Source: Lachnospiraceae bacterium (lineage in GTDB: Bacteria; Bacillota; Clostridia; Lachnospirales; Lachnospiraceae). Taken from it: DNA of 64,000 bases. Location of the stretch: NCBI GenBank assembly GCA_022510745.1, contig JAFLSY010000005.1, positions 153,427 to 217,426 on the forward strand. Direction: 5' to 3'. Positions 1,197 through 57,365 of this stretch are shown here, piece after piece. The notes beneath the pieces were generated by a model. The model was not told the origin of the DNA. It saw nothing but the letters and a program-made list of their open reading frames with translations, and did not search any database. The translations under genes and the position numbers were made by a program. How positions within the stretch are numbered: the first letter of the stretch is position 1; each line of letters starts with the position of its first letter.

Positions 1197-1433
1197 TTAT
1201 TGTAAGGTTTCCAGCGCTTTAGCAAGCTGGTCCGGGCAGGAGGTGGGCTTAAAGCCGCACTTGATGCCCTTTAATCTTTCAATGGCGTCCTCCACCCTCA
1301 TGCCGGCCACCAGTTTGCTGATGCCCTGCAGGTTTCCGTTACAGCCGCCTAAAAAGGAAACAGAATCTATAATACCGTCCGTTACTTCTATATCGATGGC
1401 AGTGGAACAGGTTCCGGATGTTTGATATTTCAT
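1197..1433 (-). CDS. TSCPD-domain small protein (TIGR03905-like)
   Basis: 78 aa with GTCS...GGCNGNLQGI...CGFKPTSCPDQLA, the signature of the small TSCPD family proteins. Confidence 0.7.
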   Translation of the reverse strand: MKYQTSGTCSTAIDIEVTDGIIDSVSFLGGCNGNLQGISKLVAGMRVEDAIERLKGIKCGFKPTSCPDQLAKALETLQ

Positions 1434-3928: not shown

Positions 3929-4906
3929 ATGGACAGGATGCCCAATATCGTGATTTTGGAGAGGAACAGTGTGGGTACGGACGTTTCTGTGGAGTGCTTT
4001 GAAAAGCTGGGAAAAGTGACCACCTATCCCAATACGACCACTGCGGAGGAGGTCAGGGAGCGTACAAAAGATGCGGATATCGTCATTGCAAACAAGGCGC
4101 CCATGCGGGAGGCGGCACTGCAGGCTTCTCCCAACGTGCGTTTGATCTGTGATTTTGCCACGGGTTATGATAATTGTGACCTGCCTTATTGCAACAGCAG
4201 AGGCATAAAGGTAGCCAATGTGGTGAACTATTCTACGGCCATGGTGGCACAGCATACTTTTACCCTGGCTTTGGCACTGGTGCAGAAACTGGCATATTAT
4301 GACAGCTATGTCAAGTCCGGGGCGTACAGCGCCCAGGACAGATTTTCCCATTTTGGCCTGCCCTTTACCGAGTTGGAGGGCAAGACTTGGGGTATTGTAG
4401 GAATGGGGAATATCGGCAAACGGGTAGCTAAAATTGCCGCCGCATTCGGGTGTCATGTGATCTTTCATTCTATTACCGGAAAGAGTACCGTCACAGAGTA
4501 TCCTCAGGTGGACAAGGATACACTGCTTGCGGAGAGTGACTTTTTATCCCTGCACTGTCCTTTAAGCAAACTGTCCCGTGATTTTATTGACAGGGAAGCG
4601 CTGCGAAAAATGAAAAAGACCGCGGTGCTCATCAATGTGGCCAGAGGGCCGGTTGTGAATAATGCTGATTTATATGAAGGTCTGATAGCCGGGGAAATTA
4701 TGGCCGCGGGACTGGACGTGCTGGAAAAAGAGCCTATGGAACTTACCAACCCCTTAAGCAAGTTAAAAGACAGCAATCAGCTCATTATCACGCCCCATCT
4801 GGCTTGGGGCAGCGTGGAGGCAAGAACCCGGTGCGTGGAAGAGACCTATAAGAATATTGAAGCATATTTGCGGGGAGAGGACAGAAATATTGTGAATTCT
4901 ATTTGA
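3929..4906 (+). CDS. D-isomer specific 2-hydroxyacid dehydrogenase family protein
   Basis: NAD-binding GIVGMGNIGKRVA motif and the RGPVV...D...H catalytic region. Start set at ATG 3929 after GGGAGG rather than the ORF-track 3878. Confidence 0.85.
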   Translation: MDRMPNIVILERNSVGTDVSVECFEKLGKVTTYPNTTTAEEVRERTKDADIVIANKAPMREAALQASPNVRLICDFATGYDNCDLPYCNSRGIKVANVVNYSTAMVAQHTFTLALALVQKLAYYDSYVKSGAYSAQDRFSHFGLPFTELEGKTWGIVGMGNIGKRVAKIAAAFGCHVIFHSITGKSTVTEYPQVDKDTLLAESDFLSLHCPLSKLSRDFIDREALRKMKKTAVLINVARGPVVNNADLYEGLIAGEIMAAGLDVLEKEPMELTNPLSKLKDSNQLIITPHLAWGSVEARTRCVEETYKNIEAYLRGEDRNIVNSI

Positions 4907-6488: not shown

Positions 6489-7247
6489 ATGAAACTCTTG
6501 GAAATGAATCATGTAAAAAAAGAATTTGATGGCTTGGGGGTTTTAAAGGATATCTCTCTTTCCGTGGAGGAGGGAGAGGTGGTTTCCATTATCGGCCCTT
6601 CCGGTTCCGGAAAGTCCACTCTGCTGCGCTGCGCCACCATGTTAGAGCAGATGGACGGAGGGGAATTGATCTACATGGGAGAATATGCGGCCCGTATGAA
6701 AGAGGACAAATGTGTCTACGCATCCAAAGCGGAACTGAAAAAGCTACACCGCTATTTTGGGCTGGTATTTCAGAATTTTAATCTGTTTCCTCATTACAGT
6801 GTATTAAAGAATATTACGGATTCCCTGATTTCCGTGGATAAGATACCCAAACAAGAGGCAGTGGAACGGGCAGAAAAGCTGCTCGTGCAGCTGGGACTGG
6901 CGGACAAGCGGGATGCCTATCCCTACCAGCTTTCCGGCGGACAGCAGCAGAGAGTCTCCATTGCCAGAGCGTTAGCCAAGCAGCCCAAATTGCTGTTTTT
7001 TGACGAGCCCACCTCGGCGCTGGATCCGGAACTTACCGTTGAGGTTTTAAAGGTAATCAAAGAACTGGCAAAAGAGCATATGACTATGATCATCGTTACC
7101 CATGAAATGCAGTTCGCGAAAGAGGTTTCGGACCGTATTATTTTCATGGAAGAGGGTATCATTAAGGAACAGGGTACGCCGGAGGAACTTTTCGGCACGG
7201 ATAATGAACGCGTCAGGGAATTTATCGGCCATCTTTCTGGAGAATAG
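6489..7247 (+). CDS. amino acid ABC transporter ATP-binding protein
   Basis: Walker [10 protein letters not shown], signature LSGGQQQR, Walker [13 protein letters not shown]. Confidence 0.92.
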
Positions 7248-7295
7248 AAAGAGCCGCTGCGGTACCGGAGAAGGAACAAAAGGAAGGTTGTCAGA

Positions 7296-36539: not shown

Positions 36540-36610
36540 GCAGCTATAGTTCATCGGTAGAATGCTAGCTTCCCAAGCTGGAGAGACGGGTTCGATTCCC
36601 GCTAGCTGCT
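36540..36610 (+). tRNA. tRNA-Gly (anticodon CCC)
   Basis: Hand-folded cloverleaf: acceptor GCAGCTA/TAGCTGC, D arm GTTC-ATCGGTA-GAAT, anticodon stem CTAGC/GCTGG with loop TTCCCAA, T arm ACGGG-TTCGATT-CCCGC (one A-C mismatch), discriminator T. No CCA is encoded. Confidence 0.85.
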
Positions 36611-39096: not shown

Positions 39097-40845
39097 ATGG
39101 AATGGAAAAAGAATGACCGGGTGACGGTGGAGATTACGGATATCGGTATCGAGGGAGAAGGCATCGGCAAACTGGAGGGATTTACTCTCTTTATTAAAGA
39201 TGCCATAATCGGTGATCTTGTCGAAGCCAAAATCATGAAAAGTAAAAAGAATTATGCCTATGCAAAATTAGAGAAGGTGGTAACGCCTTCTCCTTTTCGT
39301 GTGCTGCCCCGCTGTGAGAGTCATAGGCAATGCGGCGGCTGTCAGCTTCAGGCGCTGGATTATCACAAACAGCTGGATTTTAAGCAGGACAAGGTTAAGA
39401 ATCATCTGCTGCGCATCGGCGGTTTTTCGGAAGCGGAAATTGACAGGGTCAAGGAGCCCATTGTAGGCATGGAGGAACCCTTTCACTATCGCAATAAGGC
39501 CCAATATCCTGTAGGGCGGGATAAGAAGGGAAATCCCATAGCCGGGTTTTATGCGGGCAGAACCCACTCTATCATTGCGAATACGGAATGCTTTTTGGGC
39601 AGAAAAGAAAATAAGGAAATTCTGGATACGATTCTTGACTATATGCGGGAATTTAAAGTTGCGCCCTATGAAGAAGAAAGTGGTAAGGGTCTCATCCGCC
39701 ATATCCTGATTCGTACTGGCTTTGCCAGCGGGGAAATCATGGTGTGCCTGGTACTGAATTATCGGGGCAAAAAGGGTACAGCGCAGTATCTACCGCATCA
39801 GCAGATTTTGCTTGAGAGATTGTCCAAAATACAAAATATGACAAGTGTGTCGATAAATATAAATGATGAAAATACTAATGTGATTTTGGGAAAAGAGACA
39901 TATACCATCTGGGGCAGCGATACCATTCGGGACAGTATCCGGGTTCGGGACATGGAAAAGCCGGATATGGATTTTACGGGAGAAAAGCTGGAGTTTGCCA
40001 TCTCTCCTCTGTCCTTTTATCAGGTCAATCCCATCCAGACGGAGAAGCTCTACAGTCTGGCCTTGCAGTATGCGGGGCTGACCGGTAAAGAGACCGTTTG
40101 GGATCTGTACTGCGGTATCGGTACCATTTCACTTTTCATGGCAACCAAAGCTAAGCAGGTTTACGGTGTAGAAATCATTCCCCAGGCCATAGAGGACGCC
40201 AGAGCCAACGCCGCCCGCAACGGTATTTCCAATGCCGAGTTTTTTGTAGGAAAAGCGGAAGAGGTACTGCCTGCATTTTATGAGCGCCAAAGCGCCCTTC
40301 AGGAGCAGTCGGGCACAGATGCCGCCATGCTGCATCCGGATGTTATTGTGGTGGATCCTCCCCGCAAGGGCTGCGATGAGAAATGCCTTTCCACCATGTT
40401 AAAAATGGCTCCGTCCCGCATTGTCTATGTGAGCTGTGACTCCGCTACTTTAGCAAGGGATTTGAGAATACTTTGTGATGGTGGGTATGAGTTAAAGAAG
40501 GTTAGACCGGTGGATCAGTTCGGGCATACGGTACATGTGGAGACGGTATGCTTATTGTCCAAACTCAATGTCGAGCATCATATTGAGGTGGAAATCAATT
40601 TGGATGAGATGGATTTGACGGCTGCAGAAAGTAAGGCTACATATGAGGAAATCAAGGCATATGTGAAAGAAAAGACGGGTCTACAGGTCAGCAATCTCTA
40701 TATTGCTCAGGTAAAGCGGAAGTTTGGGATTATTGAAAGAGTGAATTATAATCTGCCGAAGTCTGAAGATTCCAGACAACCTAAGTGTCCGCCGGAGAAA
40801 GAAGAGGCTATTAAGGCAGCGCTTAAGTATTTTAAAATGATTTGA
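39097..40845 (+). CDS. rlmD: 23S rRNA (uracil-C5)-methyltransferase RlmD/RumA with element-derived C-terminal tail
   Basis: TRAM domain, Fe-S cysteines (CESHRQCGGCQLQ), SAM motif DLYCGIGT and VVDPPRKG. After HVETVCLLSK (about 40560) the ORF continues about 95 codons into AT-rich element DNA. Confidence 0.9.
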   Translation: MEWKKNDRVTVEITDIGIEGEGIGKLEGFTLFIKDAIIGDLVEAKIMKSKKNYAYAKLEKVVTPSPFRVLPRCESHRQCGGCQLQALDYHKQLDFKQDKVKNHLLRIGGFSEAEIDRVKEPIVGMEEPFHYRNKAQYPVGRDKKGNPIAGFYAGRTHSIIANTECFLGRKENKEILDTILDYMREFKVAPYEEESGKGLIRHILIRTGFASGEIMVCLVLNYRGKKGTAQYLPHQQILLERLSKIQNMTSVSININDENTNVILGKETYTIWGSDTIRDSIRVRDMEKPDMDFTGEKLEFAISPLSFYQVNPIQTEKLYSLALQYAGLTGKETVWDLYCGIGTISLFMATKAKQVYGVEIIPQAIEDARANAARNGISNAEFFVGKAEEVLPAFYERQSALQEQSGTDAAMLHPDVIVVDPPRKGCDEKCLSTMLKMAPSRIVYVSCDSATLARDLRILCDGGYELKKVRPVDQFGHTVHVETVCLLSKLNVEHHIEVEINLDEMDLTAAESKATYEEIKAYVKEKTGLQVSNLYIAQVKRKFGIIERVNYNLPKSEDSRQPKCPPEKEEAIKAALKYFKMI

Positions 40846-41032
40846 AGCATTTAATTGTACATTGATCTGGTAATCTATAGATAGTAGTGCTGGAGGTTAA
40901 AATGAGTGGCAATGGTTTGAGCAAGAGGCCAGTTCTGTTTGGAAAAATGCTGACAACTTCTTTTAGAAAAAATGCGGTGGGATTCTTATGGTAAGTATCT
41001 TGTAATATTAAATATATACCTTTGTAGCACAG

Positions 41033-41078
41033 CTTAACGGTTATGGATGTAATTTTGTCCATAACCGTTAAGTTTTTT
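41033..41078 (+). terminator. strong intrinsic terminator downstream of the rlmD tail
   Basis: CTTAACGGTTATGGA-10 nt-TCCATAACCGTTAAG, a 15 bp perfect stem followed by TTTTTT. Confidence 0.8.
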
Positions 41079-41210
41079 GTACGCTCAAAAATTAAGCGAA
41101 AAAAATAAGCAGCAATGCACAAAATAGATAAAAATGCGCAAAAATCAATAAAAAGTAAAACGCTGCGTCAGTATAAGTGAAAAATGAAAACAAAAATATG
41201 CGGAGCGGAA

Positions 41211-41239
41211 TTGACAACATTGAGTAATTGTGATATATT
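41211..41239 (+). promoter_or_regulatory. sigma-70-type promoter for the DUF262/MmeI-like/HEPN-like operon
   Basis: TTGACA (41211-41216), a 17 nt spacer ending in TGA (extended -10 TG), then TATATT (41234-41239). It lies 44 nt upstream of ATG 41283. Confidence 0.55.
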
Positions 41240-41282
41240 GATACACATAAAATCTGTACCGCATAATGAAAGGAGATATATC

Positions 41283-42443
41283 ATGAAAATAAGTAAAGCG
41301 TTAATGCAGGCTGCATCATTCAATCCAACAGAAAAATCTCATAAGATGACAGTTTTAGATATGTGTAAAAAAATTGAAAAGAAAGAAATTAGTTTACCAC
41401 TATATCAGAGAGATGTAAGTTGGACCAAGAGACAAGCGATTGAATTATTAAATTATCAGTTGTTAGGAAAAGCTCCGGTGGCGCCTATTTCTATGAACAT
41501 AATTCTTGATACGGATGATTATGTACCGCAAGTGTCATTCGATGACAGAGAAATGATAGATGAAGCGAAGATTGAAAAAGGGCAAATGTCAGTTGTAGAT
41601 GGACAGCAAAGATTGACAACAAACTATAAAGCATACTCTAACAGTGATGATTTTAGAAATATTGTGTTAGATGTTGCTAGAGGAAGGTTCCTTTTAGAAG
41701 ATGGAGCTTTTACAAAATCACAGATACCTGTAGGAATATTACTTAACAAAGAAGATGGTGTATTTTATGAATACTTAACAAGAAATAACATGATGAAAGA
41801 TCCTAGCTTTATGACAATATTGGTTCAGTGTAGATCCAAAATCCGTAGTTATTATTACACAATCAATCAGGCTGAGAATCTTACTGAAGATGAACAAATA
41901 GAATGGTTTGAAGTATTAAATAATGCAGGAAGCCGAGTGAGTGCACTTCAAATGAGATTTTCAAAGATGAAGGTTCATGGAATTGATATCTATACAATGT
42001 ATACATTAAAATTTAAAAATAGATTGCTTGAAGATGGATATGATTTCTTTTCGCCACAAAAGACAAGTGTATCATATCCGATTGCAGCACTAAATCCAGC
42101 GTATGAAATAATTATGAATAAGGCCCACACAGATGCATATGCTCCAATACCGTCTGACACAAAGGAAAATCAACTGTGTGCATTGGATTCGGCAATTCTA
42201 AAGCAGTGTTTTGCTAAAACACTTGAGGCACTTGATAAAGCTGTGACATTTATTCAGGAACAAGATGTTCATGAACCAGACAGAATTGATTATATTAATT
42301 ATATTACAGGCTATTTTGTATATAAACCAAATCCATCAGATGAAGAAATTGAGAAGCTGGTAGATTGGTATAACAAGGTGGATTTTAATAATAAGAGCAA
42401 TTCAAGAAGACGTACAATTTTTACACAACTTCTGAATATATAG
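41283..42443 (+). CDS. DUF262 (ParB/Srx-like NTPase) domain protein, no DUF1524/HNH half
   Basis: LPLYQRDVSW and VVDGQQRLTT motifs. Start at ATG 41283 after AGGAGA rather than 41184. No His-Me finger is seen in the C-terminal half. Confidence 0.8.
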   Translation: MKISKALMQAASFNPTEKSHKMTVLDMCKKIEKKEISLPLYQRDVSWTKRQAIELLNYQLLGKAPVAPISMNIILDTDDYVPQVSFDDREMIDEAKIEKGQMSVVDGQQRLTTNYKAYSNSDDFRNIVLDVARGRFLLEDGAFTKSQIPVGILLNKEDGVFYEYLTRNNMMKDPSFMTILVQCRSKIRSYYYTINQAENLTEDEQIEWFEVLNNAGSRVSALQMRFSKMKVHGIDIYTMYTLKFKNRLLEDGYDFFSPQKTSVSYPIAALNPAYEIIMNKAHTDAYAPIPSDTKENQLCALDSAILKQCFAKTLEALDKAVTFIQEQDVHEPDRIDYINYITGYFVYKPNPSDEEIEKLVDWYNKVDFNNKSNSRRRTIFTQLLNI

Positions 42444-42455
42444 GGAGATGATATC

Positions 42456-45242
42456 ATGACTGAAGCAGAACAGAGAGCGGCAGCTACAAAATTCTATAAT
42501 GATTGGCATGGTGTTGGCGATGAGAAAAGTGATTGCCAACGATTCTGGATTGAATTTTGTGGTAATGTACTGGGAATTGAGAATGTAACGCAGAAGTTGG
42601 TTTTCGAAAAGAGAGTAATCATAGATGAGCAAACCAAGTTTATTGATGTTTACATACCGGAAACCAGAGTATTGATTGAGCAAAAGAGCATTAATAAAGA
42701 TTTAAATAAAAAGGCACAGCAGTCAGACGGTTCTTTGCGTACACCTTTTGAGCAGGGACGAAACTATGCACAGTGGATGATACCTGACGAAACACCATTA
42801 TGGATAATTGCTTGCAATTTTAGGTCATTTGAAATACATGATATGAACAGGCCGAATGAAGCGCCTGTTGTTATTACATTAGAGGAAGTAAGACATAAGC
42901 TGCCTCTGTTTGATTTTATGTTTAAAAAAGAGGTCAAAGAGTTATCTCATGAAATGGAAATATCCGTAGAAGCGGGTAAAATCGTGGGAATATTGTATGA
43001 CAAGTTGCTAGAGCAGTATAAAGATCCGGATGAAAACTCATTTAAAAGCCTGAATGCACTTTGCGTAAGGCTTGTATTTTGTCTATATGCTGAAGATGCA
43101 GGCATTTTTGGTTCGCATATGATGTTCCATGACTATCTCAAAGATATACCTGTGAATGGCTTTCGGAAGGCGTTGTTGGAGCTATTTAAGATACTCGATA
43201 CCAAAACAGAAGATAGAGACAAATATTTAGCCGAAGATAATCCTAAACTGGCTGCATTTCCTTATGTGAATGGCGGCTTGTTTGCTGACGAAGATATTGA
43301 GATACCACCTTTTACTGAGGAAATCAAGGAATTGCTACTCTCAAAGGCTAGCGCAGATTTTGATTGGTCTGATATTAGTCCTACTATTTTTGGTGCAGTT
43401 TTTGAAAGTACACTAAATCCGGAAACAAGAAGAAGTGGTGGTATGCACTACACTTCGATTGAGAATATTCACAAAGTGATTGATCCGCTGTTTATGGATG
43501 CGTTGAAATCCGAGCTAAATGAAATTAGGCAGATTTCAGTAGTGCGTACTAAGAAATCTAAGTTAAGCGCATTTCAGAGTAAGCTTGCACAATTAAAGTT
43601 TCTTGATCCGGCGTGCGGTTCCGGAAATTTCCTTACAGAAACATATATTTCTTTACGGAGGCTAGAAAATGATATTCTAATTGAATTACAAAACGGACAG
43701 ATCGTATTAGGAGAAGCCATTGATCCGATTCAGGTATCTATTAGTCAATTTTATGGAATTGAGATAAATGATTTTGCTGTTACAGTTGCCAAAACTGCTC
43801 TTTGGATAGCAGAAAGCCAGATGATGAAGGAAACAGAGGACATAGTGCATATGAACCTTGATTTTCTTCCTTTGAAATCATATGCAAATATCCAAGAAGG
43901 AAATGCATTACAGCTAGATTGGGAAAGTATAGTAGCTAAAAATGAACTGAACTATATTATGGGAAATCCTCCCTTTATTGGGGCTAGATTGATGACGGTA
44001 TCACAGAAAGATGATATGCAAATTGTCTTTGGTAAGTTAAAAGGATTGGGCAATTTAGATTATGTGTCGGCATGGTATAAGAAAGCAACAGAGCTTATAG
44101 AAGGCACATCTATTAGTGTTGCCTTTGTGTCAACTAATTCTATTACACAAGGAGAACAGGTGGCAATCTTATGGGAACAGTTATTTGAAAAAGGAATACA
44201 TATAGATTTTGCGTATCGGACTTTTAAGTGGGAGAGTGAAGCAAAAGACAAAGCCGCTGTACATTGTGTGATTGTAGGATTTAGCGGTAAAATATCTACA
44301 GGTAAAAGAAAACTGTTTTATGGGGATAGTATTGTCCATGAAGTGGATAATATCAATGCTTATTTATACGATGCACCCAATGTATTTATTGTAAATCGAA
44401 AAAAGCCTCTACAAGATGTGCCTCAAATGGATTTTGGAAGTATGCCTAATGATGGTGGTTTTTTGTGTGATTATAGCGAAGAAGAAAAAAGTGTAGTTGT
44501 AGAAAAGTATCCTTTGGCAGAAAAAATGTTTAAACGCTTTGTGGGAGCAACAGAATTTTTACATAACAAAAGTAGGTGGTGTTTATGGTTAAAGGGGATT
44601 AGTCCCTCAGATATAAAAGCAATTCCTCCAATCTGGGAGGCAGTTCAAAAAGTTCAAGAAATGAGAAGTGGGAGCAATAGGGAAGCGACTAGGAAATTGG
44701 CGGCAACACCGTCTTTATTTGGCGAAATTAGACAGCCGGATAAAGATTATTTGATTGTCCCTCGACATTCATCTGAGAATAGGCGATATATTCCAATCGG
44801 ATATGCTGACAAAGATATTATATGTGGGGATGCTAATATGCTTATTCCTGATGCAGATTTGTTTTCGTTTGGTGTTTTAATGTCAAATGTTCATATGGCA
44901 TGGGTGAGAGCTATATGTGGAAGAATTAAAAGTGATTATAGATATTCCTCTGCTGTTGTATATAATAATTATCCGTGGTGCAACCCAACGGAAGAGGAGA
45001 AAGCTAAAATAGAAGCAACAGCACAGGGCATTTTAGACGCAAGAGCGCTTTATCCTGATAGTTCATTAGCAGATCTCTATGATGAAATACTTATGCCGCC
45101 AGAATTGCGAAAAGCCCATTTGAAGAATGACAAAGCAGTTATGCAGGCATATGGTTTTTCGATAAGGGACACTACTGAAGAAAAATGTGTAGCAGAACTT
45201 ATGAAAATGTATCAGGATATTATTGAAAACATTGAGGAGTAA
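42456..45242 (+). CDS. MmeI-family type IIL restriction-modification enzyme (fused endonuclease-N6A methyltransferase-TRD)
   Basis: 928 aa. The N-terminal PD-ExK-like FIDVYIPETRVLIEQKS follows an FWIEFCGNVLGI region as in MmeI. SAM motif FLDPACGSGNF and catalytic IMGNPPFIG are present. Confidence 0.85.
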   Translation: MTEAEQRAAATKFYNDWHGVGDEKSDCQRFWIEFCGNVLGIENVTQKLVFEKRVIIDEQTKFIDVYIPETRVLIEQKSINKDLNKKAQQSDGSLRTPFEQGRNYAQWMIPDETPLWIIACNFRSFEIHDMNRPNEAPVVITLEEVRHKLPLFDFMFKKEVKELSHEMEISVEAGKIVGILYDKLLEQYKDPDENSFKSLNALCVRLVFCLYAEDAGIFGSHMMFHDYLKDIPVNGFRKALLELFKILDTKTEDRDKYLAEDNPKLAAFPYVNGGLFADEDIEIPPFTEEIKELLLSKASADFDWSDISPTIFGAVFESTLNPETRRSGGMHYTSIENIHKVIDPLFMDALKSELNEIRQISVVRTKKSKLSAFQSKLAQLKFLDPACGSGNFLTETYISLRRLENDILIELQNGQIVLGEAIDPIQVSISQFYGIEINDFAVTVAKTALWIAESQMMKETEDIVHMNLDFLPLKSYANIQEGNALQLDWESIVAKNELNYIMGNPPFIGARLMTVSQKDDMQIVFGKLKGLGNLDYVSAWYKKATELIEGTSISVAFVSTNSITQGEQVAILWEQLFEKGIHIDFAYRTFKWESEAKDKAAVHCVIVGFSGKISTGKRKLFYGDSIVHEVDNINAYLYDAPNVFIVNRKKPLQDVPQMDFGSMPNDGGFLCDYSEEEKSVVVEKYPLAEKMFKRFVGATEFLHNKSRWCLWLKGISPSDIKAIPPIWEAVQKVQEMRSGSNREATRKLAATPSLFGEIRQPDKDYLIVPRHSSENRRYIPIGYADKDIICGDANMLIPDADLFSFGVLMSNVHMAWVRAICGRIKSDYRYSSAVVYNNYPWCNPTEEEKAKIEATAQGILDARALYPDSSLADLYDEILMPPELRKAHLKNDKAVMQAYGFSIRDTTEEKCVAELMKMYQDIIENIEE

Positions 45243-45245
45243 ATT

Positions 45246-46184
45246 ATGGAGCAAGAAATAAAATGTAAAACTTTATCTGCCATATTTCAAAGTGATAAAT
45301 TATTTTTAAAAGGCCCTCACAATATAGAGTTTGATACAGACGGGGAGCATCCCCTTCACATTAAAGTAGAACAGTGTGGAATGAGGGAAATCACATTGAC
45401 CTCAGATGAAGAGATTTCTGTATTTGATTTGAATGCAGTACTTACCCGTGTCGAGAGATTATTGATGATATTTGATGGTATATTTATTCCTTTGTCACAA
45501 ATGCAATTTTCGAAATCTGATATTAGTAACGAAAATGTATTAAGGGTAGCCGCAGAAAACCTCATGAAACAAAGATTATCTTACTTTTCATCAGCTAATT
45601 TTTGTACATATGATGTAGACAAACTGCTTGAATTTGATTCTATTCTTACACCTGAGTTATTTAACAAGTGGGAAAAATTACTCGAAGAATTAGATGTGGC
45701 TCATCAAGTCTATTTATATTCATTAAGTAACAGTGGTATAACAGTAGATGTTAAATGTGCATTTATGATTGAGTTGTCAGAGCCTCTTGTTGAGATCGTT
45801 AAAGAGCACACTAATTTATTTGCCTCGTTAAAACCAGGAACTCGTACTACATCTCTTAAAGATTGTTTGGATGCGTTAATTACAAAATATGGTGTGGATA
45901 TTTTTAAAAGAGAATTGTCGGATAATTACGAACAATTTTTGTTAGCGATGGTAAATAGTCGCGTTCGTATTATGCATATTAAACGTGAGCAAAAGGGAAT
46001 ATATCTTAATGGAGCCGAATCTATTTTATATGCTTTAAAAATGAGCTTGTTATATCGTCGTATATTATTTGAACTGTTGAATATTGAAGAAAGTTATTAC
46101 AAAGAAGCATTAGAGAAAGCTGTTTCAAACATAAATGGATGGAATGATATTTTAGCGCATTTTTTAAAGAAATTGCCGGAATAA
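45246..46184 (+). CDS. uncharacterised protein with C-terminal HEPN-like Rx4H motif
   Basis: 312 aa. The ATG lies 3 nt after the MmeI-like stop and its GAGGAG RBS lies inside the upstream gene. A helical C-terminal half carries NSRVRIMH (R-x4-H). The family call is tentative. Confidence 0.6.
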   Translation: MEQEIKCKTLSAIFQSDKLFLKGPHNIEFDTDGEHPLHIKVEQCGMREITLTSDEEISVFDLNAVLTRVERLLMIFDGIFIPLSQMQFSKSDISNENVLRVAAENLMKQRLSYFSSANFCTYDVDKLLEFDSILTPELFNKWEKLLEELDVAHQVYLYSLSNSGITVDVKCAFMIELSEPLVEIVKEHTNLFASLKPGTRTTSLKDCLDALITKYGVDIFKRELSDNYEQFLLAMVNSRVRIMHIKREQKGIYLNGAESILYALKMSLLYRRILFELLNIEESYYKEALEKAVSNINGWNDILAHFLKKLPE

Positions 46185-46285
46185 TTAAATATGATAATAT
46201 GCCTTATGAAATTTGTATTAAGGTAGAATTGTAACATAAAACCAAATGTACAAAAGTTTAATATAAGTACAAGGAGAAAAATTTA

Positions 46286-48085
46286 ATGATAGAAAAAATC
46301 GAAATACAATATTTTAGATCTATTTATAGAGCAACTATTTCTAATATTAGTGATATAAATATATTTTCGGGAAAGAATGATGCAGGAAAATCAAATGTAT
46401 TGAAAGCGCTTAATTTATTTTTTAATAATTATGTTGTATTTGAGGGAGATTATGCTTTTAAAGAAAATTATAATTTACAGCGTCTAGATGAGGTGCGTAG
46501 AGAAACAGTAAAGGGTAAGCAGTTTATACAGATAAAGATTACTTTTAAACGTGGGCAACAATATGAAAAAACACTGCCGGATAGTTTTACAATATCAAAA
46601 AAATGGAACAGAGAAGATGAAACCCCACAGATAACGGATAATATAGAAATACAGTTAAAAAAACAGGGGAGAACTTATAATGCAAGGAGTAGGGCATCAC
46701 TTACTAGATTTCTGAATAATGTAAAATACATATATATTCCTGCAATCAAAGATCAAAGATTGTTTGGTGAAATGCTAGAGAAATTACAGAATATTGTATA
46801 CTCAAAGAAATTATCAGGAAACGAACAACTTACTTCATCATTATCAACACTTTTTGAAAATGTAGTTATAGCGACTAAAGAATTAAGTGATGAATTCAGA
46901 GAGGCAACAAGTGTTGATTCAATGATAGCCACTCCGACAGAGGTAGACGAATTATATAAAACCTTGCGTATAATTACAACAATGGCAGACAGCACTGTTT
47001 CATTAGAGAACAGAGGTGATGGAATTAGAGTTAGATATATTCCAAGTATTCTTAATTATATAGCTCAAAATGCGAGTGAAAATTATATTTGGGGATTTGA
47101 AGAGCCTGAAAATTCTTTAGAATTTAATATGGCAAGAGAAATGGCAGAAGATTTTTATCAAACATATGCTAAAAATAGTTTAATAATGTTAACAACACAT
47201 TCCCCAGCATTTATTGATTTGGGATATAGAGATAAGGGTAAGGGATATAGATGTTATAAATCATTATATGAGACCAAAATAGTTGATTTTGAGCACGCAG
47301 AGCATCTTCCATCTTTGGCAGAGGAACTGGGTTATATACAAATTTTACGACGCCAATATGACGAGTATAAAAGTATTGTAGAAGAAAATAAAAAAATGAA
47401 AGATAAAATTGAAGATTTAGAAACAGAATTGCTAATTTCGCAAAAACCGGTTTTATTAACAGAAGGAAAGACAGATGCAAAAATTTTAACAGTTGCATGG
47501 GAAAAATTATATGATTATGAATGCCCATTTGATATTAAAAGTTGTAACTTACTTGATGATCAAGAAGAAAATGCAATCGCAGGTGCGGGAATTCTAAAAA
47601 ATACACTTTGCGCATGGAGATTTGATTCTGTTAAAACTATAATAGGCTTATTTGATAACGATACAACAGGATTGAAAGAATTCGGATTAGATGGAAATTA
47701 TCATGCAGTTACAGGAAAACCATGGAAAATTCACACTAATAAAAAAGGTTATGCTTTTGTTATTCCGGCAAATACTGAGATGCTTAAAGAGATAGCAAGG
47801 GCAGGGAAGCTTTCAATTGAGTTTTTATTCGGGTATGATAGTTTATGTAAAGAAGTGAATGGAAAAAAACTTGAATTTGAACCTATGATAACAACAGTAT
47901 TGGTAAACGGTACAAAAGTAGATTTAGAAGTGACTGATAATATTGAATGGTATTATAATAAAATAAAAGATAATTCTAAAGTTGATTTTGCATATACCGT
48001 CGTCCCAACTTTAGAGAAAGAAGAGTTTGAAAATTTTCGAGATATTTTTTCTATTGTACTTGAGATATTAGAAAGTATAAATTGA
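46286..48085 (+). CDS. ABC-type ATPase fused to Toprim nuclease domain (OLD-family / fused PARIS AriA-AriB-like)
   Basis: Walker A GKNDAGKSN, Walker B-like FEEPENSLE, H-loop LTTHSPAF and a coiled-coil linker. Toprim-like LLTEGKTDAKIL (Glu) and LFDNDTTG (DxD) follow. Confidence 0.75.
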   Translation: MIEKIEIQYFRSIYRATISNISDINIFSGKNDAGKSNVLKALNLFFNNYVVFEGDYAFKENYNLQRLDEVRRETVKGKQFIQIKITFKRGQQYEKTLPDSFTISKKWNREDETPQITDNIEIQLKKQGRTYNARSRASLTRFLNNVKYIYIPAIKDQRLFGEMLEKLQNIVYSKKLSGNEQLTSSLSTLFENVVIATKELSDEFREATSVDSMIATPTEVDELYKTLRIITTMADSTVSLENRGDGIRVRYIPSILNYIAQNASENYIWGFEEPENSLEFNMAREMAEDFYQTYAKNSLIMLTTHSPAFIDLGYRDKGKGYRCYKSLYETKIVDFEHAEHLPSLAEELGYIQILRRQYDEYKSIVEENKKMKDKIEDLETELLISQKPVLLTEGKTDAKILTVAWEKLYDYECPFDIKSCNLLDDQEENAIAGAGILKNTLCAWRFDSVKTIIGLFDNDTTGLKEFGLDGNYHAVTGKPWKIHTNKKGYAFVIPANTEMLKEIARAGKLSIEFLFGYDSLCKEVNGKKLEFEPMITTVLVNGTKVDLEVTDNIEWYYNKIKDNSKVDFAYTVVPTLEKEEFENFRDIFSIVLEILESIN

Positions 48086-48116
48086 AAAAAATGAATTATT
48101 GATTTAATAAGATATG

Positions 48117-48161
48117 GTGTATCGTGGTAAAGATTAAAGCTTTGCTGCGATACACTTTTTT
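48117..48161 (+). terminator. intrinsic terminator after the ATPase-Toprim gene
   Basis: GTGTATCG...CGATACAC stem followed by TTTTTT. A homologous terminator precedes module copy 2. Confidence 0.6.
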
Positions 48162-48209
48162 ATTAAAATGATATGGTTCATCTTGGATAATCATTGTTTT
48201 TTAAATCTC

Positions 48210-49012
48210 AAGGGGGTCAGGGGGATATGCCCTCTGCAAGCAAATTTTCATAAGTTTCTGTGCAGAAAAACTTGTGAAAATTTTGCCTGTGGACGCCCGT
48301 AAGCAGTGCTTGCTATTCTGGCAGCGTATATACGCAGGCAGTGCTTGCTATTCGTCCACATGTCATGACACAGGCAGTGCTTGCTATATCACTTCAAACT
48401 TTCCGTAGGGAGTTTGCGGTTTTTAGGCTGCATAGGCAGTCTGTCCAAAAACCATATAGGCGTTAATGCCAAATTTTTTCAAAAAGCTTTTTTAAATAGG
48501 TACGTTTTTTGCATATTTATCATTTACAATGATGCCATACAAAATATTTTAAGAAAGGTACCCTATAGGGGACACTTCATTTCTTTGTAATCTCTGTGTG
48601 GGCATATTGTTCTTATATGCTTTTTAGTCTGACAGACAGAGCAGATAAAAACTGAATATGGTATCACATACAGGACATGAGGATATGTGTAGCCGCTATG
48701 CAGGTACGCCATGATATGCCTGCTCCGGATCATTGCTGGAGTGAACACGAGGAAATGCCAAACAGTGCATTGAAGTAAAGGCATGGAGCGAGAAATATTT
48801 GGCAAAATGCACAGCAGGTGTGCAGGGCGATGAAGCATATCCGTGATAATGATACTTCCAGATTTCGGAGAAATCTTGAAATCTCGGTCACAAAGATGAC
48901 GGTGCGATTCCGATGTGGGCAGAGTACTGACCTGCCACTTGTATGTGAATTTATGGAATGAAAAATGTGTGGGCATAGCAGAGGATCTGCAGTCTTTGAG
49001 ATGATAAAAAAC
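48210..49012 (+). ncRNA. candidate large structured noncoding RNA / conserved noncoding module, copy 1
   Basis: ORF-poor 0.8 kb that aligns by eye along its length with 56641-57365. Hairpins are conserved with compensatory or G-U changes that work only on the + strand. Exact ends and transcription are unknown. Confidence 0.45.
48303..48387 (+). repeat. three direct copies of GCAGTGCTTGCTAT at 35-36 nt spacing (iteron-like)
   Basis: Copies at 48303-48316, 48338-48351 and 48374-48387. Module copy 2 has a single copy (56736-56749). Confidence 0.8.
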
Positions 49013-49033
49013 AGATAAAAAATACAGCGTTAG

Positions 49034-49070
49034 GGCAGTTATAAACACTTTAGTTTATGCTGCCTTTTTT
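49034..49070 (+). terminator. hairpin plus T-run at the 3' end of module copy 1
   Basis: GGCAG-TT-ATAAAC-loop-GTTTAT-G-CTGCC followed by TTTTTT. It sits immediately before a GGAGGGA RBS. Confidence 0.5.
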
Positions 49071-49139
49071 GCGTGCAGAAGGAGGGAACTGAATGGAAAA
49101 ATCTTATATGAAAGTGGTAAAGAATAAATAGAAAATATC

Positions 49140-49277
49140 ATGTTGGATGAATGGAGCGGACTGGCAGATCTACTTGCTAACCTGATTGAAAAGTACGCAG
49201 CAGATTTGGATATTGCGGATATGCCCGACACAAAATTAGACATGGAAAATAAAGAGGAATTATTGGAGAAAGAATAG
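49140..49277 (+). CDS. small hypothetical protein (45 aa) conserved downstream of both module copies
   Basis: MLDEWSGLADLLANLIEKYAADLDIADMPDTK... shares an L-I-x-K-Y-x-x-D...(D/E)MP(D/N)T pattern with the 33 aa ORF at 57493-57594. Confidence 0.3.
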   Translation: MLDEWSGLADLLANLIEKYAADLDIADMPDTKLDMENKEELLEKE

Positions 49278-49378
49278 AATTCTGTATTGCAAGCAGCACA
49301 GCCATGAGATATAATAATCGTGATAATGCTGTCCAAACAAAAGCCGAAAATATGAAAGAAAGGCAAAGGAGAATACAT

Positions 49379-50455
49379 ATGGATAATCAAAAGCACATGG
49401 GAAAAGATAAAGAGGGAGTAATTTTTCCGATTGCTCCAAATCTTTCCGAAATGGGTGACAGTTATTTGGAGTTCATAGAAAAAATCAAAAGTGAAATTCA
49501 GAAGCAAAGAGTTTCTGTTGTAATGAATGCCAATGCCAGTATGATCTGCCTTTATTGGAATATCGGTAGGGCTATTTTAGCGAAACAGGAAGAAGAGAGA
49601 TGGGGAACAAAGGTCATAGATCGTATGGCAAAAGACTTGAAAGATGCGTTCCCGGAAATGTCTGGTTTTTCTCCTCGAAACATCAAGTATATGCGTAAAT
49701 TTGCCCAATGTTGGCCGGATTATGAAATTGTGCAACGGGTCGTTGCACAAATACCGTGGCGTACAAATATAACATTAATGGACAAATTAAAAACGGAGGA
49801 AGAACGCATATGGTATGCTGGTAAAACGATAGAAAATGGCTGGAGTAAAGCCATTCTGGAGTTGCAGATTCAGAGCAGATTGATGGAGCGTACCGGAAAG
49901 ACGGTTAATAATTTTCCTGCTGCATTGCCGCCTCTTGATTCAGACATGGCAAATCAGATATTTAAAGATCCTTATCTGTTTGATTTCTTGGGAACAGATA
50001 TGCCAAGGCGGGAAGTGGAAATTGAGCAGAAACTGACCGAGCATATACAGAAGTTTCTTTTGGAACTTGGGCAGGGATTCGCTTTTGTTGGCAGACAGGT
50101 ACACTTAGAAATAGGCGGTCAGGATTTTTATATTGATCTTTTGTTTTACCATTTAAAGCTACGCTGCTATGTTGTGATTGAACTGAAAGCCTGTGACTTT
50201 GAGCCGGGATTTATCAGCCAACTTAATATGTATCAGAATGCGGTTAATGATATTTTACGGCATCCGGACGATAAACCTACTATTGGACTTTTACTGGTCA
50301 AAGGAAAGAATGAAACAGTGGTTGAGTATTCTTTAGCTGGGTATCAAAACCCGATTGGTGTTGCGGAATGGAAAAACCAGATTACACAGTCCTTGCCGGA
50401 AGAGTTACAAAGCAGTCTGCCGTCTATCGAGGAAATAGAGAAAGAGTTGGAATAG
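49379..50455 (+). CDS. DUF1016 / YhcG-family PD-(D/E)XK nuclease-like protein
   Basis: YWNIGRAIL...WGTKVIDRMAKDL...SPRNIKYMRKFA N-terminal region and a C-terminal IDLLFYH...VVIELK nuclease core. Start at ATG 49379 after AAGGAG. Confidence 0.8.
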   Translation: MDNQKHMGKDKEGVIFPIAPNLSEMGDSYLEFIEKIKSEIQKQRVSVVMNANASMICLYWNIGRAILAKQEEERWGTKVIDRMAKDLKDAFPEMSGFSPRNIKYMRKFAQCWPDYEIVQRVVAQIPWRTNITLMDKLKTEEERIWYAGKTIENGWSKAILELQIQSRLMERTGKTVNNFPAALPPLDSDMANQIFKDPYLFDFLGTDMPRREVEIEQKLTEHIQKFLLELGQGFAFVGRQVHLEIGGQDFYIDLLFYHLKLRCYVVIELKACDFEPGFISQLNMYQNAVNDILRHPDDKPTIGLLLVKGKNETVVEYSLAGYQNPIGVAEWKNQITQSLPEELQSSLPSIEEIEKELE

Positions 50456-50510: not shown

Positions 50511-52187
50511 ATGAGTAAAGAAAAAGTCAAAGTCTATACCTATACCAGAGTATCCACAGCCATGCAGATAGACGGTTATTCATTGGATGCGCAGAAAGCC
50601 AGAATGAAGGCATTCGCTGACTATAATGAATATGAGATTGTGGGTACATATGAGGATGCCGGAAAGTCCGGTAAATCCATTGAGGGAAGAATGGAATTCA
50701 ACCGCATGATGGAAGATATAAAGGCAGGGAAAGACGGTGTTTCTTTTGTCCTTGTTTTTAAGTTATCCAGATTTGGCAGGAATGCGGCTGATGTACTTTC
50801 TACTTTACAGATCATGCAGGATTTTGGCGTAAACCTGATCTGTGTGGAGGACGGTATTGATTCCTCCAAAGATGCGGGAAAGCTGATGATCTCCGTCCTG
50901 TCAGCGGTTGCTGAAATTGAACGGGAGAATATCCGAGTTCAGACGATGGAGGGGCGTATCCAGAAAGCCCGTGAGGGAAAGTGGAACGGCGGCTTTGCGC
51001 CCTATGGTTATCAGCTGACAGACGGGAAACTTCAGATCAATGAAGAAGAGGCAGCGGCTATCAGGGTGATCTTTGACCAGTATGTGAATACGGATATCGG
51101 CGCTAACGGAGTGGCAAAATATCTTGAAAATCACGGTATCCGTAAAATACAGCGGCAGAATGGGAAAAATCCGCTCTTTGATGCACATCTGATAAGGATC
51201 ATCTTAAAAAATCCGGTGTATTGCGGGAAGATTGCCTATGGACGCAGAAAGACGGAAAAAGTTCACGGAACACGGAACGAGTATCATCTTGTGGAGCAGG
51301 ACAATTACATTCTGGTGGACGGACAACATGAAGCAATCATTGCTGAAGATGTTTGGCAGGCTGCACAGGTAAAACTGATTGCACAGGCAAAGAAGTATGA
51401 GCATGTGAACAAGGCAAAGGATACACGGACGCATCTTCTTTCTGGAATTGTCAAATGTCCGGTCTGCGGTGCGGGTATGTATGGCAACAAGTGTATCAAG
51501 AATAAAAAGGACGGTACGAAATATAAGGACTTTTATTATTATGGCTGTAAACACCGGAAGATGCTTCGTGGTCATAAATGCGACTATAATAAGCAGATAC
51601 GGGAAGAACTTTTGGACGATGCCGTGGCGGAGATCATAGTAAAACTGGTGAGCAATCCCAAGTTTGCTGCCATGATGCAGGAAAAGATCAACAGAAAGGT
51701 TGATACCACTGCCATAGACGGGGAATTAGCTAATTATGAGAAGCAGCTCCGCCAGTTCTATTCTATTAAGACTAAGCTTGCGGAAGAAATAGATTCCCTC
51801 GATCCGGACGACAAACATTATGTCAAACGGAAAGCTGACCTTGATGACAGGCTCTACCGGATGTATGATAAGATAGAAGATGCAGAGACAAAGCTTATTG
51901 AAGCTAGGGCGAAGAAGCAGGCAGTTGAAGCGGAGAAGCTGACCGGAGATAATATCTATAAGGTGCTGATCTACTTTGAAAAGCTCTATGCCGTGATGAA
52001 TGAGGTGGAACGCCGTCAGTTTATGGAAACGCTGATCTCTGAGATACAGGTTTATGAGGATAGGCAGCCTAATGGTCAGTGGCTGAAATCCATTAAGTTC
52101 AAGCTACCGATCATTGAGGAAGACATAGAGATGAGTTTGGACAATGATAAGCATGTTGAGACGGTTGCCCTATTATCCCAAATGTGA
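50511..52187 (+). CDS. large serine recombinase
   Basis: Resolvase catalytic domain (YTRVSTAMQ, SRFGRN), recombinase domain, zinc ribbon CPVCG...YYYGC and a coiled coil. The last 11 codons (HVETVALLSQM) mirror the rlmD core. Confidence 0.92.
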   Translation: MSKEKVKVYTYTRVSTAMQIDGYSLDAQKARMKAFADYNEYEIVGTYEDAGKSGKSIEGRMEFNRMMEDIKAGKDGVSFVLVFKLSRFGRNAADVLSTLQIMQDFGVNLICVEDGIDSSKDAGKLMISVLSAVAEIERENIRVQTMEGRIQKAREGKWNGGFAPYGYQLTDGKLQINEEEAAAIRVIFDQYVNTDIGANGVAKYLENHGIRKIQRQNGKNPLFDAHLIRIILKNPVYCGKIAYGRRKTEKVHGTRNEYHLVEQDNYILVDGQHEAIIAEDVWQAAQVKLIAQAKKYEHVNKAKDTRTHLLSGIVKCPVCGAGMYGNKCIKNKKDGTKYKDFYYYGCKHRKMLRGHKCDYNKQIREELLDDAVAEIIVKLVSNPKFAAMMQEKINRKVDTTAIDGELANYEKQLRQFYSIKTKLAEEIDSLDPDDKHYVKRKADLDDRLYRMYDKIEDAETKLIEARAKKQAVEAEKLTGDNIYKVLIYFEKLYAVMNEVERRQFMETLISEIQVYEDRQPNGQWLKSIKFKLPIIEEDIEMSLDNDKHVETVALLSQM

Positions 52188-56640: not shown

Positions 56641-57365
56641 AAGGGGGTGCAGGGGGATATGCCCTCTGCAAGCCAATTTTTTCAAGTTTCCGATTAGGAC
56701 AAACTTGGGAAAATTATGCCTGTGGACATCCACAGGCAGTGCTTGCTATGTCACTTCAAACTTTCCATAAGGAGTTTGCGGTTTTTTTGGTGGCATAGGC
56801 AGTCTGTCCAAAAACCATACAGGCGTTAATATCAAATTTTTTAAATAATTTTTTCTAAATAGGCAAGTTTTTTGCGTATTTATCATTTAGAATGATGTCA
56901 TACAAATTATTTTAAGAAAGGTACTCTCTAGGGACACTTCATTTCTTTATAATCTCAGTGTGGGTATATTGTTCTTATATGCTTTTGGACTGACAGACTG
57001 AGTAGATAAAAACTGAATATTGTTTCACATACAGAACGTGAGGATATGTGTAGCCACTATGTAAGTGCGCCATGATATGCCTGCTCCGGATTAACGCTGG
57101 AGTGAGTGTGAGGGAGTGTCGGATATGGCATTAAAGCAAAGGCATGGAGCGATAGAACCTGACAAAATGCACAGCAGTTGTGCGGGGCGATGAAGCATAT
57201 CCGTGATAATAATACTTCTGGATTTTAGGAAGAAAATTCAGTCATGAAATGACGGTGCGATTCCGATGTGGGCAGAGTGCTGACCTGCCACTTGTATGTG
57301 AATTTATGGAATGAAAAATGTGTGGGTATAGCAGAGGATATGCACTCTCTTAGATGATAAAAATC
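56641..57365 (+). ncRNA. candidate large structured noncoding RNA / conserved noncoding module, copy 2
   Basis: Aligns with 48210-49012 but lacks the 70 nt repeat insertion. No ORF of 60 aa or more lies on either strand between 56284 and 57615. Confidence 0.45.

Follow-up and report, generated by a model that had tools for sequence, protein, structure and literature searches.

We analyzed a non-coding module of about 0.8 kb in a stretch of 64,000 nucleotides (nt) from a Lachnospiraceae bacterium (assembly GCA_022510745.1, contig JAFLSY010000005.1, positions 153,427 to 217,426 of the forward strand), hereafter called the window. The module precedes a large serine recombinase operon and is present in two diverged copies. 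Its core is a real structured RNA of the + strand of approximately 300 nt, located at 48647-48950 in copy 1 and at 57007-57303 in copy 2. According to profile and structure comparisons the core is homologous to the pemK motif of Rfam (RF02913) and to canT, an antiterminator RNA of Tn916. By analogy with canT it probably acts as an antiterminator leader of the pemK/canT family for an operon composed of a small open reading frame (ORF), a DUF1016 gene and the serine recombinase gene.

The original prediction, made from the sequence alone, had proposed that the whole 0.8 kb represents a large RNA without a match to any family. A structured RNA is present, but it covers only about 300 nt, and the rest consists of a separable 5' block, a linker and a terminator. 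The absence of a family match did not hold either, since pemK was found just below its cut-off in both copies and above it in homologs, and canT is the same RNA. The finding is real and the RNA is of a known kind; the identity of pemK and canT, the full structure supported by covariation and the breadth of the family may be new.

The core RNA and its relation to pemK and canT

Copy 1 (48199-49010) and copy 2 (56641-57365) were aligned over approximately 800 columns with a mean column identity of 86%. A surplus of 71 nt in copy 1 corresponds to two further units ending in GCAGTGCTTGCTAT, of which copy 1 has three and copy 2 one. As predicted, a block of 91 nt differed between the copies at 2 positions, the flanking cargo genes were unrelated and no credible coding capacity was found. 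The + strand ORFs of the module comprised at most 69 amino acids (aa), and an ORF of 161 aa on the minus strand (48563-49048) was present in copy 1 and broken in copy 2.

When one genome per species was searched for a 22-mer taken from the best conserved block, 56 loci were found, nearly all of them in Lachnospiraceae. Distant relatives were gathered by a generic pattern, and the core was compared at full length by nhmmer profiles and hand-mapped structures. The sequence profile of the close family aligned end to end with several distant relatives, and the core was found in distant elements of other Bacillota as well. At all loci the RNA was orientated in the same direction as the downstream genes. 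Serine recombinases followed, in some cases with a RhuM or DUF1016 gene in between, in agreement with the predicted location next to recombinases of mobile elements. Distant members were often located just 3' of a small sigma-like gene and before a small ORF and two or three serine recombinases, and at other distant loci the RNA preceded ParAB or a primase-helicase. Regulator genes (sigma-like, HTH_11, MerR) were often found directly upstream of the RNA. The distant members lacked a terminator on the 3' side of the RNA, which instead ran into the ribosome binding site (RBS) of the next gene. No annotated plasmid or phage matched the module by BLASTN.

Two loci of the wider family are worth describing individually. 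Locus L010 carried two pemK-type RNAs in opposite orientation, at 1289-1350 (+) and 4037-4134 (-), the second of which reached 65 bits. In L092 (CP138365.1) the RNA (7001-7294) was located 3' of a MerR gene and 5' of a 51-aa ORF and recombinases. This entry, deposited as a plasmid of S. agalactiae, resembles a circularised MOBT conjugative element; beyond the joint comes a SNF2 gene of the same orientation.

Within the core, conserved blocks were separated by variable hairpins, and the arms of these hairpins changed together. RNAalifold analysis of 40 close relatives resulted in a closed domain. Helix P1 (ACATACAG with TTGTATGT; 48666-73 with 48939-46) encloses about 280 nt, and P2 (GGATATGT with GCATATCC; 48681-88 with 48835-42) encloses the 5' domain. 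Further helices are P3 (48692-94 with 48826-28), P4 (48707-09 with 48788-90), P5 (48716-23 with 48775-84), P6 (48808-13 with 48819-24) and P9 (48915-22 with 48933-38). The conserved blocks include the box AAAAACTGAATAT at the 5' end (48647-59), the invariant GATAATGATACTTC (48845-58) and GGTGCGATTCCGATG (48901-15), all on the + strand.

Pairs were counted after the close-family structure had been transferred to 44 diverse sequences. Here, 80.9% of the cells were paired compared to 69.2% in shuffled sequences (0 of 500 shuffles reached the observed value) and 32-46% with slid partners. The covariation score was 0.312 and did not exceed 0.122 in the slid controls; double-sided changes were found at 36 of the 55 pairs. 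The structure exceeded every shuffled and slid control, and both the predicted compensatory changes and the covariation among homologs, proposed as a check, were thereby found. These figures are underestimates because MAFFT places P2 one column off in the distant subfamily. An alignment-free test gave a P2 of 8-10 bp; at least 13 different sequences occurred in its arms, each complementary to its own partner.

Counting over the consensus pairs in the close family gave 180 G·U pairs versus 12 A·C mismatches. Therefore, as originally proposed, the fold is located on the + strand, which is the sense strand for the genes that follow. Folding energy alone did not separate the + and - strands.

No other 5' element in the whole family is as conserved as the box at the 5' end, TTGACAAYTGAATA (48647-48659), which resembles a -35 hexamer; its counterpart in L093, the Tn916-type region of pCF10, is located at 2165-2179. 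No -10 element at a fixed spacing and no covarying partner were found for this box. GGACGT was discarded as a -10 element since its spacing from the box varied between subfamilies, and pairing of the TTGACA box with TGTCAA was seen in one subfamily with uncompensated mismatches. In the distant members L057-L090 the sequence GGAGGUGAGAUUCCUAUG within the RNA forms a near-perfect Shine-Dalgarno sequence with an AUG. The window counterpart (48901-48930) contains a mini-ORF of 5 codons (MWAEY), and the overlapping hairpin covaries. A peptide gene starting at the AUG of the motif was rejected, as the peptide is not conserved.

At gathering threshold an Rfam scan of the window identified solely a tRNA gene at 36540-36610, with no match in the module region. 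In a permissive scan pemK matched both copies at homologous positions and over all 61 model positions, in copy 1 at 48846-48916 (+ strand, 34.1 bits, E = 7e-5) and in copy 2 at 57206-57269 (34.6 bits, E = 5.5e-5), compared to a cut-off of 34.8 bits. The cut-off was passed in 17 of 18 scanned loci with 36.9-65 bits; the exception, L032, matched the module only partially and lacked a pemK match. The pemK signature was present in copy 1, consisting of a 5' single-stranded AUAAUGAUACUUC, three hairpins with GGUGNNAUUCC in the loop of the last one and a following AUG. Copy 2 had the same elements with one G-to-A change. Two short hairpins of the original prediction, AGAUUUC/GAAAUCU at 48860-48876 and GUCA/UGAC, were found to be hairpins 1 and 2 of the pemK motif. 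A full-length RT-2 match in copy 2 (16.6 bits, cut-off 40) and weak Clostridiales-2 matches were taken as chance.

The pemK RNA motif was reportedly described by Weinberg et al. in 2017 and is classified as cis-regulatory in Rfam. Its members reportedly occur in Bacillota, in sense orientation and 5' of genes that act on DNA. The family of the window RNA agrees with this pattern: its loci belong to Lachnospiraceae and other Bacillota, and the genes downstream encode recombinases, ParAB or a primase. A pemK toxin gene is absent from the window locus. Furthermore, the Rfam model covers about 65-100 nt, which is the 3' third of the core, whereas the conserved and covarying unit found here comprises about 280-300 nt. 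No function of pemK was found in the literature searched.

Since the gene arrangement of the distant members recalls Tn916, canT was included in the comparison. This RNA is a cis-acting, orientation-specific and processive antiterminator located between orf7/orf8 and xis-int (PMC11658703, PLoS Genet 2024). Its sequence was taken from L093, to which the following coordinates refer. The pemK model matched canT at 2323-2423 with 55 bits, and the profile of the window family matched its 5' domain (2163-2341) with E = 4e-7. By direct reading, P1 of canT is formed by AATCGAA (2185-91) and TTCGATT (2439-45), and P2 by CGATAAGAA (2199-2207) and TTCTTATCG (2312-2320). In total, equivalents of P1, P2, P4, P5 and P6 were readable.

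Both RNAs share a length of about 285-300 nt, the 5' box TTGAAAACTGAATA, the closing P1, P2 around the 5' domain, the CGCCATGA and GAGCGAT blocks, the invariant GAUAAUGAUAC, three hairpins, the GGUGNNAUUCC loop and the P9 hairpin. Both are located after regulators of the element and before recombinase genes of the same orientation. The functional canT fragment of 452 bp starts at 2166, which is at the box TTGAAAACTGAATA. An inactivating mutation of canT, S3, changes ATA to TGC 283 nt after the orf8 stop (PMC11658703). This site corresponds to 2323-2325, where an AUA begins the invariant AUAAUGAUAC. The equivalent AUA is located at 48846-48848 in copy 1 and at 57206-08 in copy 2, and the block is invariant in all 44 sequences.

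Composition of the module and of its host element

Comparison of the loci by BLASTN separated four pieces: the 5' block, a variable linker, the core, and the terminator with the small ORF. The core (48645-48957) was present in nearly all loci with 70-82% identity and the 5' block (48199-48533) in about half of them. The linker comprised 117 nt in the window and about 420 nt including an HTH_11 gene in L001-type loci. As annotated in copy 1, the subfamily-specific linker extends from 48561 to 48646 and contains a small hairpin, GCATAT/ATATGC, at 48602-48620.

The 5' block of copy 1 (48199-48560) is conserved and non-coding and consists of hairpins and palindromes showing paired substitutions between loci. 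On the + strand it contains a G-run hairpin (48210-48236), a hairpin of about 20 bp (48239-48287), a hairpin (48395-48416) with a U-run reaching to 48419 and a further hairpin at 48418-48453. The second of these, analyzed as 48236-48290, had a folding energy of -18.6 kcal/mol (z = -4.3). Together with the hairpins at 48395-48416 and 48602-48620 it had been listed in the original prediction, and all three are real. An array at 48284-48387 is composed of a variable 9-bp palindrome followed by the invariant GCAGTGCTTGCTAT with a spacing of 35-36 nt. Copy 1 has three such units (48303-16, 48338-51 and 48374-87); in other loci 1-3 units were found. A conserved -10-like TACAAT (48526-48531; TAnAAT as the conserved form) lies in an AT-rich stretch. 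The 5' block of copy 2 (56641-56925) has one palindrome-plus-repeat unit, with the repeat at 56736-56749, and a -10-like TAGAAT at 56889-56894.

The 5' block (about 330 nt) differs from the core in its distribution. It is located 5' of the -10-like element, and in L001-type loci an HTH gene follows it immediately. We read it as a likely operator/promoter region and as a regulatory module apart from the core. Alternatively, it may be a separate RNA or a site resembling an origin of transfer (oriT) or a single-strand origin (sso).

The core is followed after about 80 nt by an intrinsic terminator (49033-49070, + strand) located directly before the RBS of the downstream genes. It has an interrupted stem of 14 bp and a run of six U (-18.6 kcal/mol, z = -3.5), in agreement with the terminal hairpin and U-run originally reported. 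Of 41 flanks from the close family, 33 retain a terminator at this place. The operon downstream has three parts, all on the + strand: an ORF of 45 aa (49140-49277), a DUF1016/YhcG nuclease (49304-50455) and a large serine recombinase (50511-52187). The 45-aa ORF (MLDEWSGLADLLANLIEKYAADLDI...), which is conserved and located directly 3' of the terminator, had a DNA identity of 79-85% across loci and no match to a Pfam family. A role as recombination directionality factor or as regulator is conceivable.

The host element of copy 1 is an island of about 12 kb that carries defence cargo and no conjugation genes. Downstream of a rumA/RlmCD-like ORF the order, on the + strand throughout, is a terminator at 41031-41074, the cargo, a second long-stem terminator, the module and the recombinase operon. 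The first terminator has a perfect stem of 19 bp and lies near the left end of the element, 5' of the first cargo gene. The cargo (41184-48085) is a defence cluster coding for a GmrSD-like enzyme, an MmeI-like type IIL restriction-modification enzyme, a HEPN (Apea-like) protein and an AAA_15 ATPase. It is closed by the second terminator (48116-48162), which has a perfect stem of 17 bp and a U-run (-22.4 kcal/mol, z = -6.8).

The rumA/RlmCD-like methyltransferase ORF (39097-40845) comprises 582 aa, and its Pfam domain stops near residue 489, about 90 codons early. This ORF is likely the integration site, and its 3' end was probably replaced on insertion of the serine-recombinase element. The tRNA gene at 36540-36610 (57.5 bits) is located upstream of protease, HD-domain and rumA genes.

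Two elements are arranged in tandem, one at about 40.6-52.5 kb and one at about 52.5-59 kb. The latter, host of copy 2, has lost its recombinase. Copy 2 is probably decaying and inactive because both the terminator and the recombinase are absent downstream. It carries an A at 57211 within GATAATAATACTTC (57205-57218), where a G is invariant in 44 of 44 aligned family members. This G-to-A change is a candidate natural loss-of-function allele.

Proposed function and alternative explanations

An antiterminator leader would work as follows. Transcription would start from a + strand promoter in the 5' block, with TACAAT at 48526-31 placing the start near 48538. The nascent RNA would fold into a multi-helix domain of about 280 nt that is closed by P1; within it, P2 closes the 5' domain, and the 3' domain is made up of the pemK hairpins. 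As in canT, the folded RNA may stay with the transcribing RNA polymerase, which would then ignore intrinsic terminators. The putative first target is the terminator at 49033-49070, and read-through would lead to expression of all three downstream genes, from the small ORF through the DUF1016 nuclease to the serine recombinase. Once the element has been excised and circularised, the same transcript could cross the joint towards the terminator at 41031-41074, as in Tn916 and as the circularised S. agalactiae element (L092) suggests. In plasmid pLS20, terminator stems of at least 14 bp resist antitermination (PMC10325885). The long stems at 41031-41074 and 48116-48156 may bound the antiterminated unit because they belong to the size class that resists conAn antitermination in this plasmid. 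The terminators are located where the model needs them.

Several observations weigh against an antiterminator leader. Both copies stay 0.2-0.7 bits below the curated pemK cut-off, and the likeness to canT is detectable at profile level only, so that the function may have diverged. Whether the terminator at 49033-49070 would be overridden is uncertain, because its interrupted 14-bp stem is of the size that is resistant in pLS20. Additionally, the candidate promoter is weak by consensus, and the element is small and free of conjugation genes, so that there is no long operon of the kind served by canT in Tn916. The fold, its strand, conservation and position and the homology to canT are shown, whereas the antitermination activity itself, the promoter and the choice of the overridden terminators are inferred.

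The RNA might instead be a conditional leader, either riboswitch-like or a protein-dependent attenuator, which controls solely the terminator at 49033-49070 through a ligand or a protein of the element and is not processive. We consider this unlikely, even though it is the most probable of the alternatives: the layout of structured domain, terminator, RBS and ORF fits, the long invariant single-stranded GAUAAUGAUACUUC and GGUGNNAUUCC suggest a binding pocket, regulator genes are often found upstream, Rfam lists pemK as cis-regulatory, and GGGCAG/CUGCC occurs both in P9 and in the terminator. However, by direct reading the sole candidate antiterminator pairing comprises 5 bp, and a classical attenuator, in which the 3' arm of P9 would pair with the 5' arm of the terminator, was rejected for this reason. 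Distant members have no terminator before the next gene, and canT is active without other Tn916 genes, on heterologous terminators and on three of them in series (PMC11658703). The missing terminator of the distant members, which continue into the RBS of the next gene, also speaks against a free-standing small RNA gene of about 48540-49070 that has its own promoter and terminator and acts in trans by an antisense mechanism or by sponging a protein. Such a gene would account for the promoter-like and terminator-like signals on both sides of the core in the close family. It is nevertheless improbable, given that the RNA is always co-oriented with and directly 5' of the operon and that canT does not complement in trans (PMC11658703).

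The original prediction had offered a single-stranded DNA (ssDNA) element of the transferred strand as its alternative to an RNA, that is, an sso, an oriT or an ssDNA promoter. The strand-specific fold, the mobile host DNA, the presence of CS-6-like GAGCGAT/TAGCGAT and the inverted G-run/C-run repeats of the 5' block, which recall MOBT oriT sites, are compatible with this idea. It may apply to the 5' block, but for the core it is very unlikely: canT is active in chromosomal reporters without transfer and depending on its orientation to the promoter (PMC11658703), L010 contains two copies in opposite orientation, and the RNA is always positioned in a 5' untranslated region. As the fold forms on the sense strand for the downstream genes, which cannot template their mRNA, a promoter of the Frpo type was excluded, and the sso idea based on the CS-6-like GAGCGAT was set aside for the core given the RNA-level function of canT.

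Least credible is a decayed coding sequence or a real antisense gene, represented by the 161-aa minus-strand ORF. Minus-strand ORFs of 100-177 aa did cover the core in many homologs, and orf5 is annotated at the canT position in Tn916. Across the core, however, no sense or antisense frame was conserved among the 44 homologs. The antisense frames were open in 10, 12 and 16 of them, the open frames differed between homologs and sometimes all three were open. The module is not the pseudogene debris considered in the original prediction. Indels in the core break the reading frame and substitutions are pairwise compensatory. ORFs over the 5' block, compared across loci, were in inconsistent frames as well, and no remnant of the HTH_11 gene was found in the window. 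Both the antisense and the upstream ORFs were rejected as genes. For canT, mutations of the orf5 start and stop had no effect (PMC11658703).

With the core read as an antiterminator leader, an obscure stretch of 0.8 kb becomes a regulatory unit with a testable mechanism, comprising a promoter/operator region, an antiterminator RNA, a terminator and a recombinase operon. The pemK motif, without a function since 2017, would gain an experimentally grounded one through canT. In turn, canT gains a consensus structure backed by covariation, in which P1, P2, P5 and P6 are open to compensatory mutants. This suggests that control by termination and antitermination is common in mobile elements of Bacillota, including small non-conjugative defence islands.

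Comparison with known antitermination systems

According to the canT study (PMC11658703), processive antitermination in cis by RNA alone is also known from the put RNA of phage HK022 and the EAR RNA of Bacillus, which bind the transcribing polymerase. Both are much smaller than the core and unrelated to it in sequence and structure, and no Rfam match to either was found here.

Another antiterminator RNA, conAn2 of the pLS20-type conjugative plasmids, comprises 260-600 nt, acts in cis and is located where an operon starts (PMC8191782). Like the core, it is found on mobile DNA of Gram-positive bacteria and has about 240 nt closed by a long-range inverted repeat, comparable to P1. For long-range action conAn2 needs the protein ConAn1; no gene resembling ConAn1 was recognisable by Pfam beside the window RNA. 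In the prgQ-prgA leader of pCF10, a reported conAn system, there was no pemK signal at E <= 1. We would regard conAn2 as analogous to the core, homology not being detected.

The system homologous to the core is canT. The terminator at 41031-41074 has the same position as the T1 insulator of Tn916 (PMC11658703). Differences concern the surroundings of the RNA: the window RNA precedes a large serine recombinase and canT precedes xis and a tyrosine integrase, and the window RNA has a conserved terminator immediately 3' and resides on an island that lacks conjugation genes, unlike Tn916. In the canT study, secondary-structure predictions were described as not interpretable, and pemK and Rfam are not mentioned (PMC11658703); neither a link between pemK and canT nor the full structure was found there or in the later literature searched. 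We tentatively propose, at somewhat less than even confidence, that pemK and canT form one class with a closed fold of about 280-300 nt and a covarying 5' domain, and that the 5' block is a second, unclassified structured element. If this is true, no RNA-only processive antiterminator of mobile elements in Bacillota would be more widespread than pemK/canT, which would extend to serine-recombinase islands, ParAB operons and primase operons.

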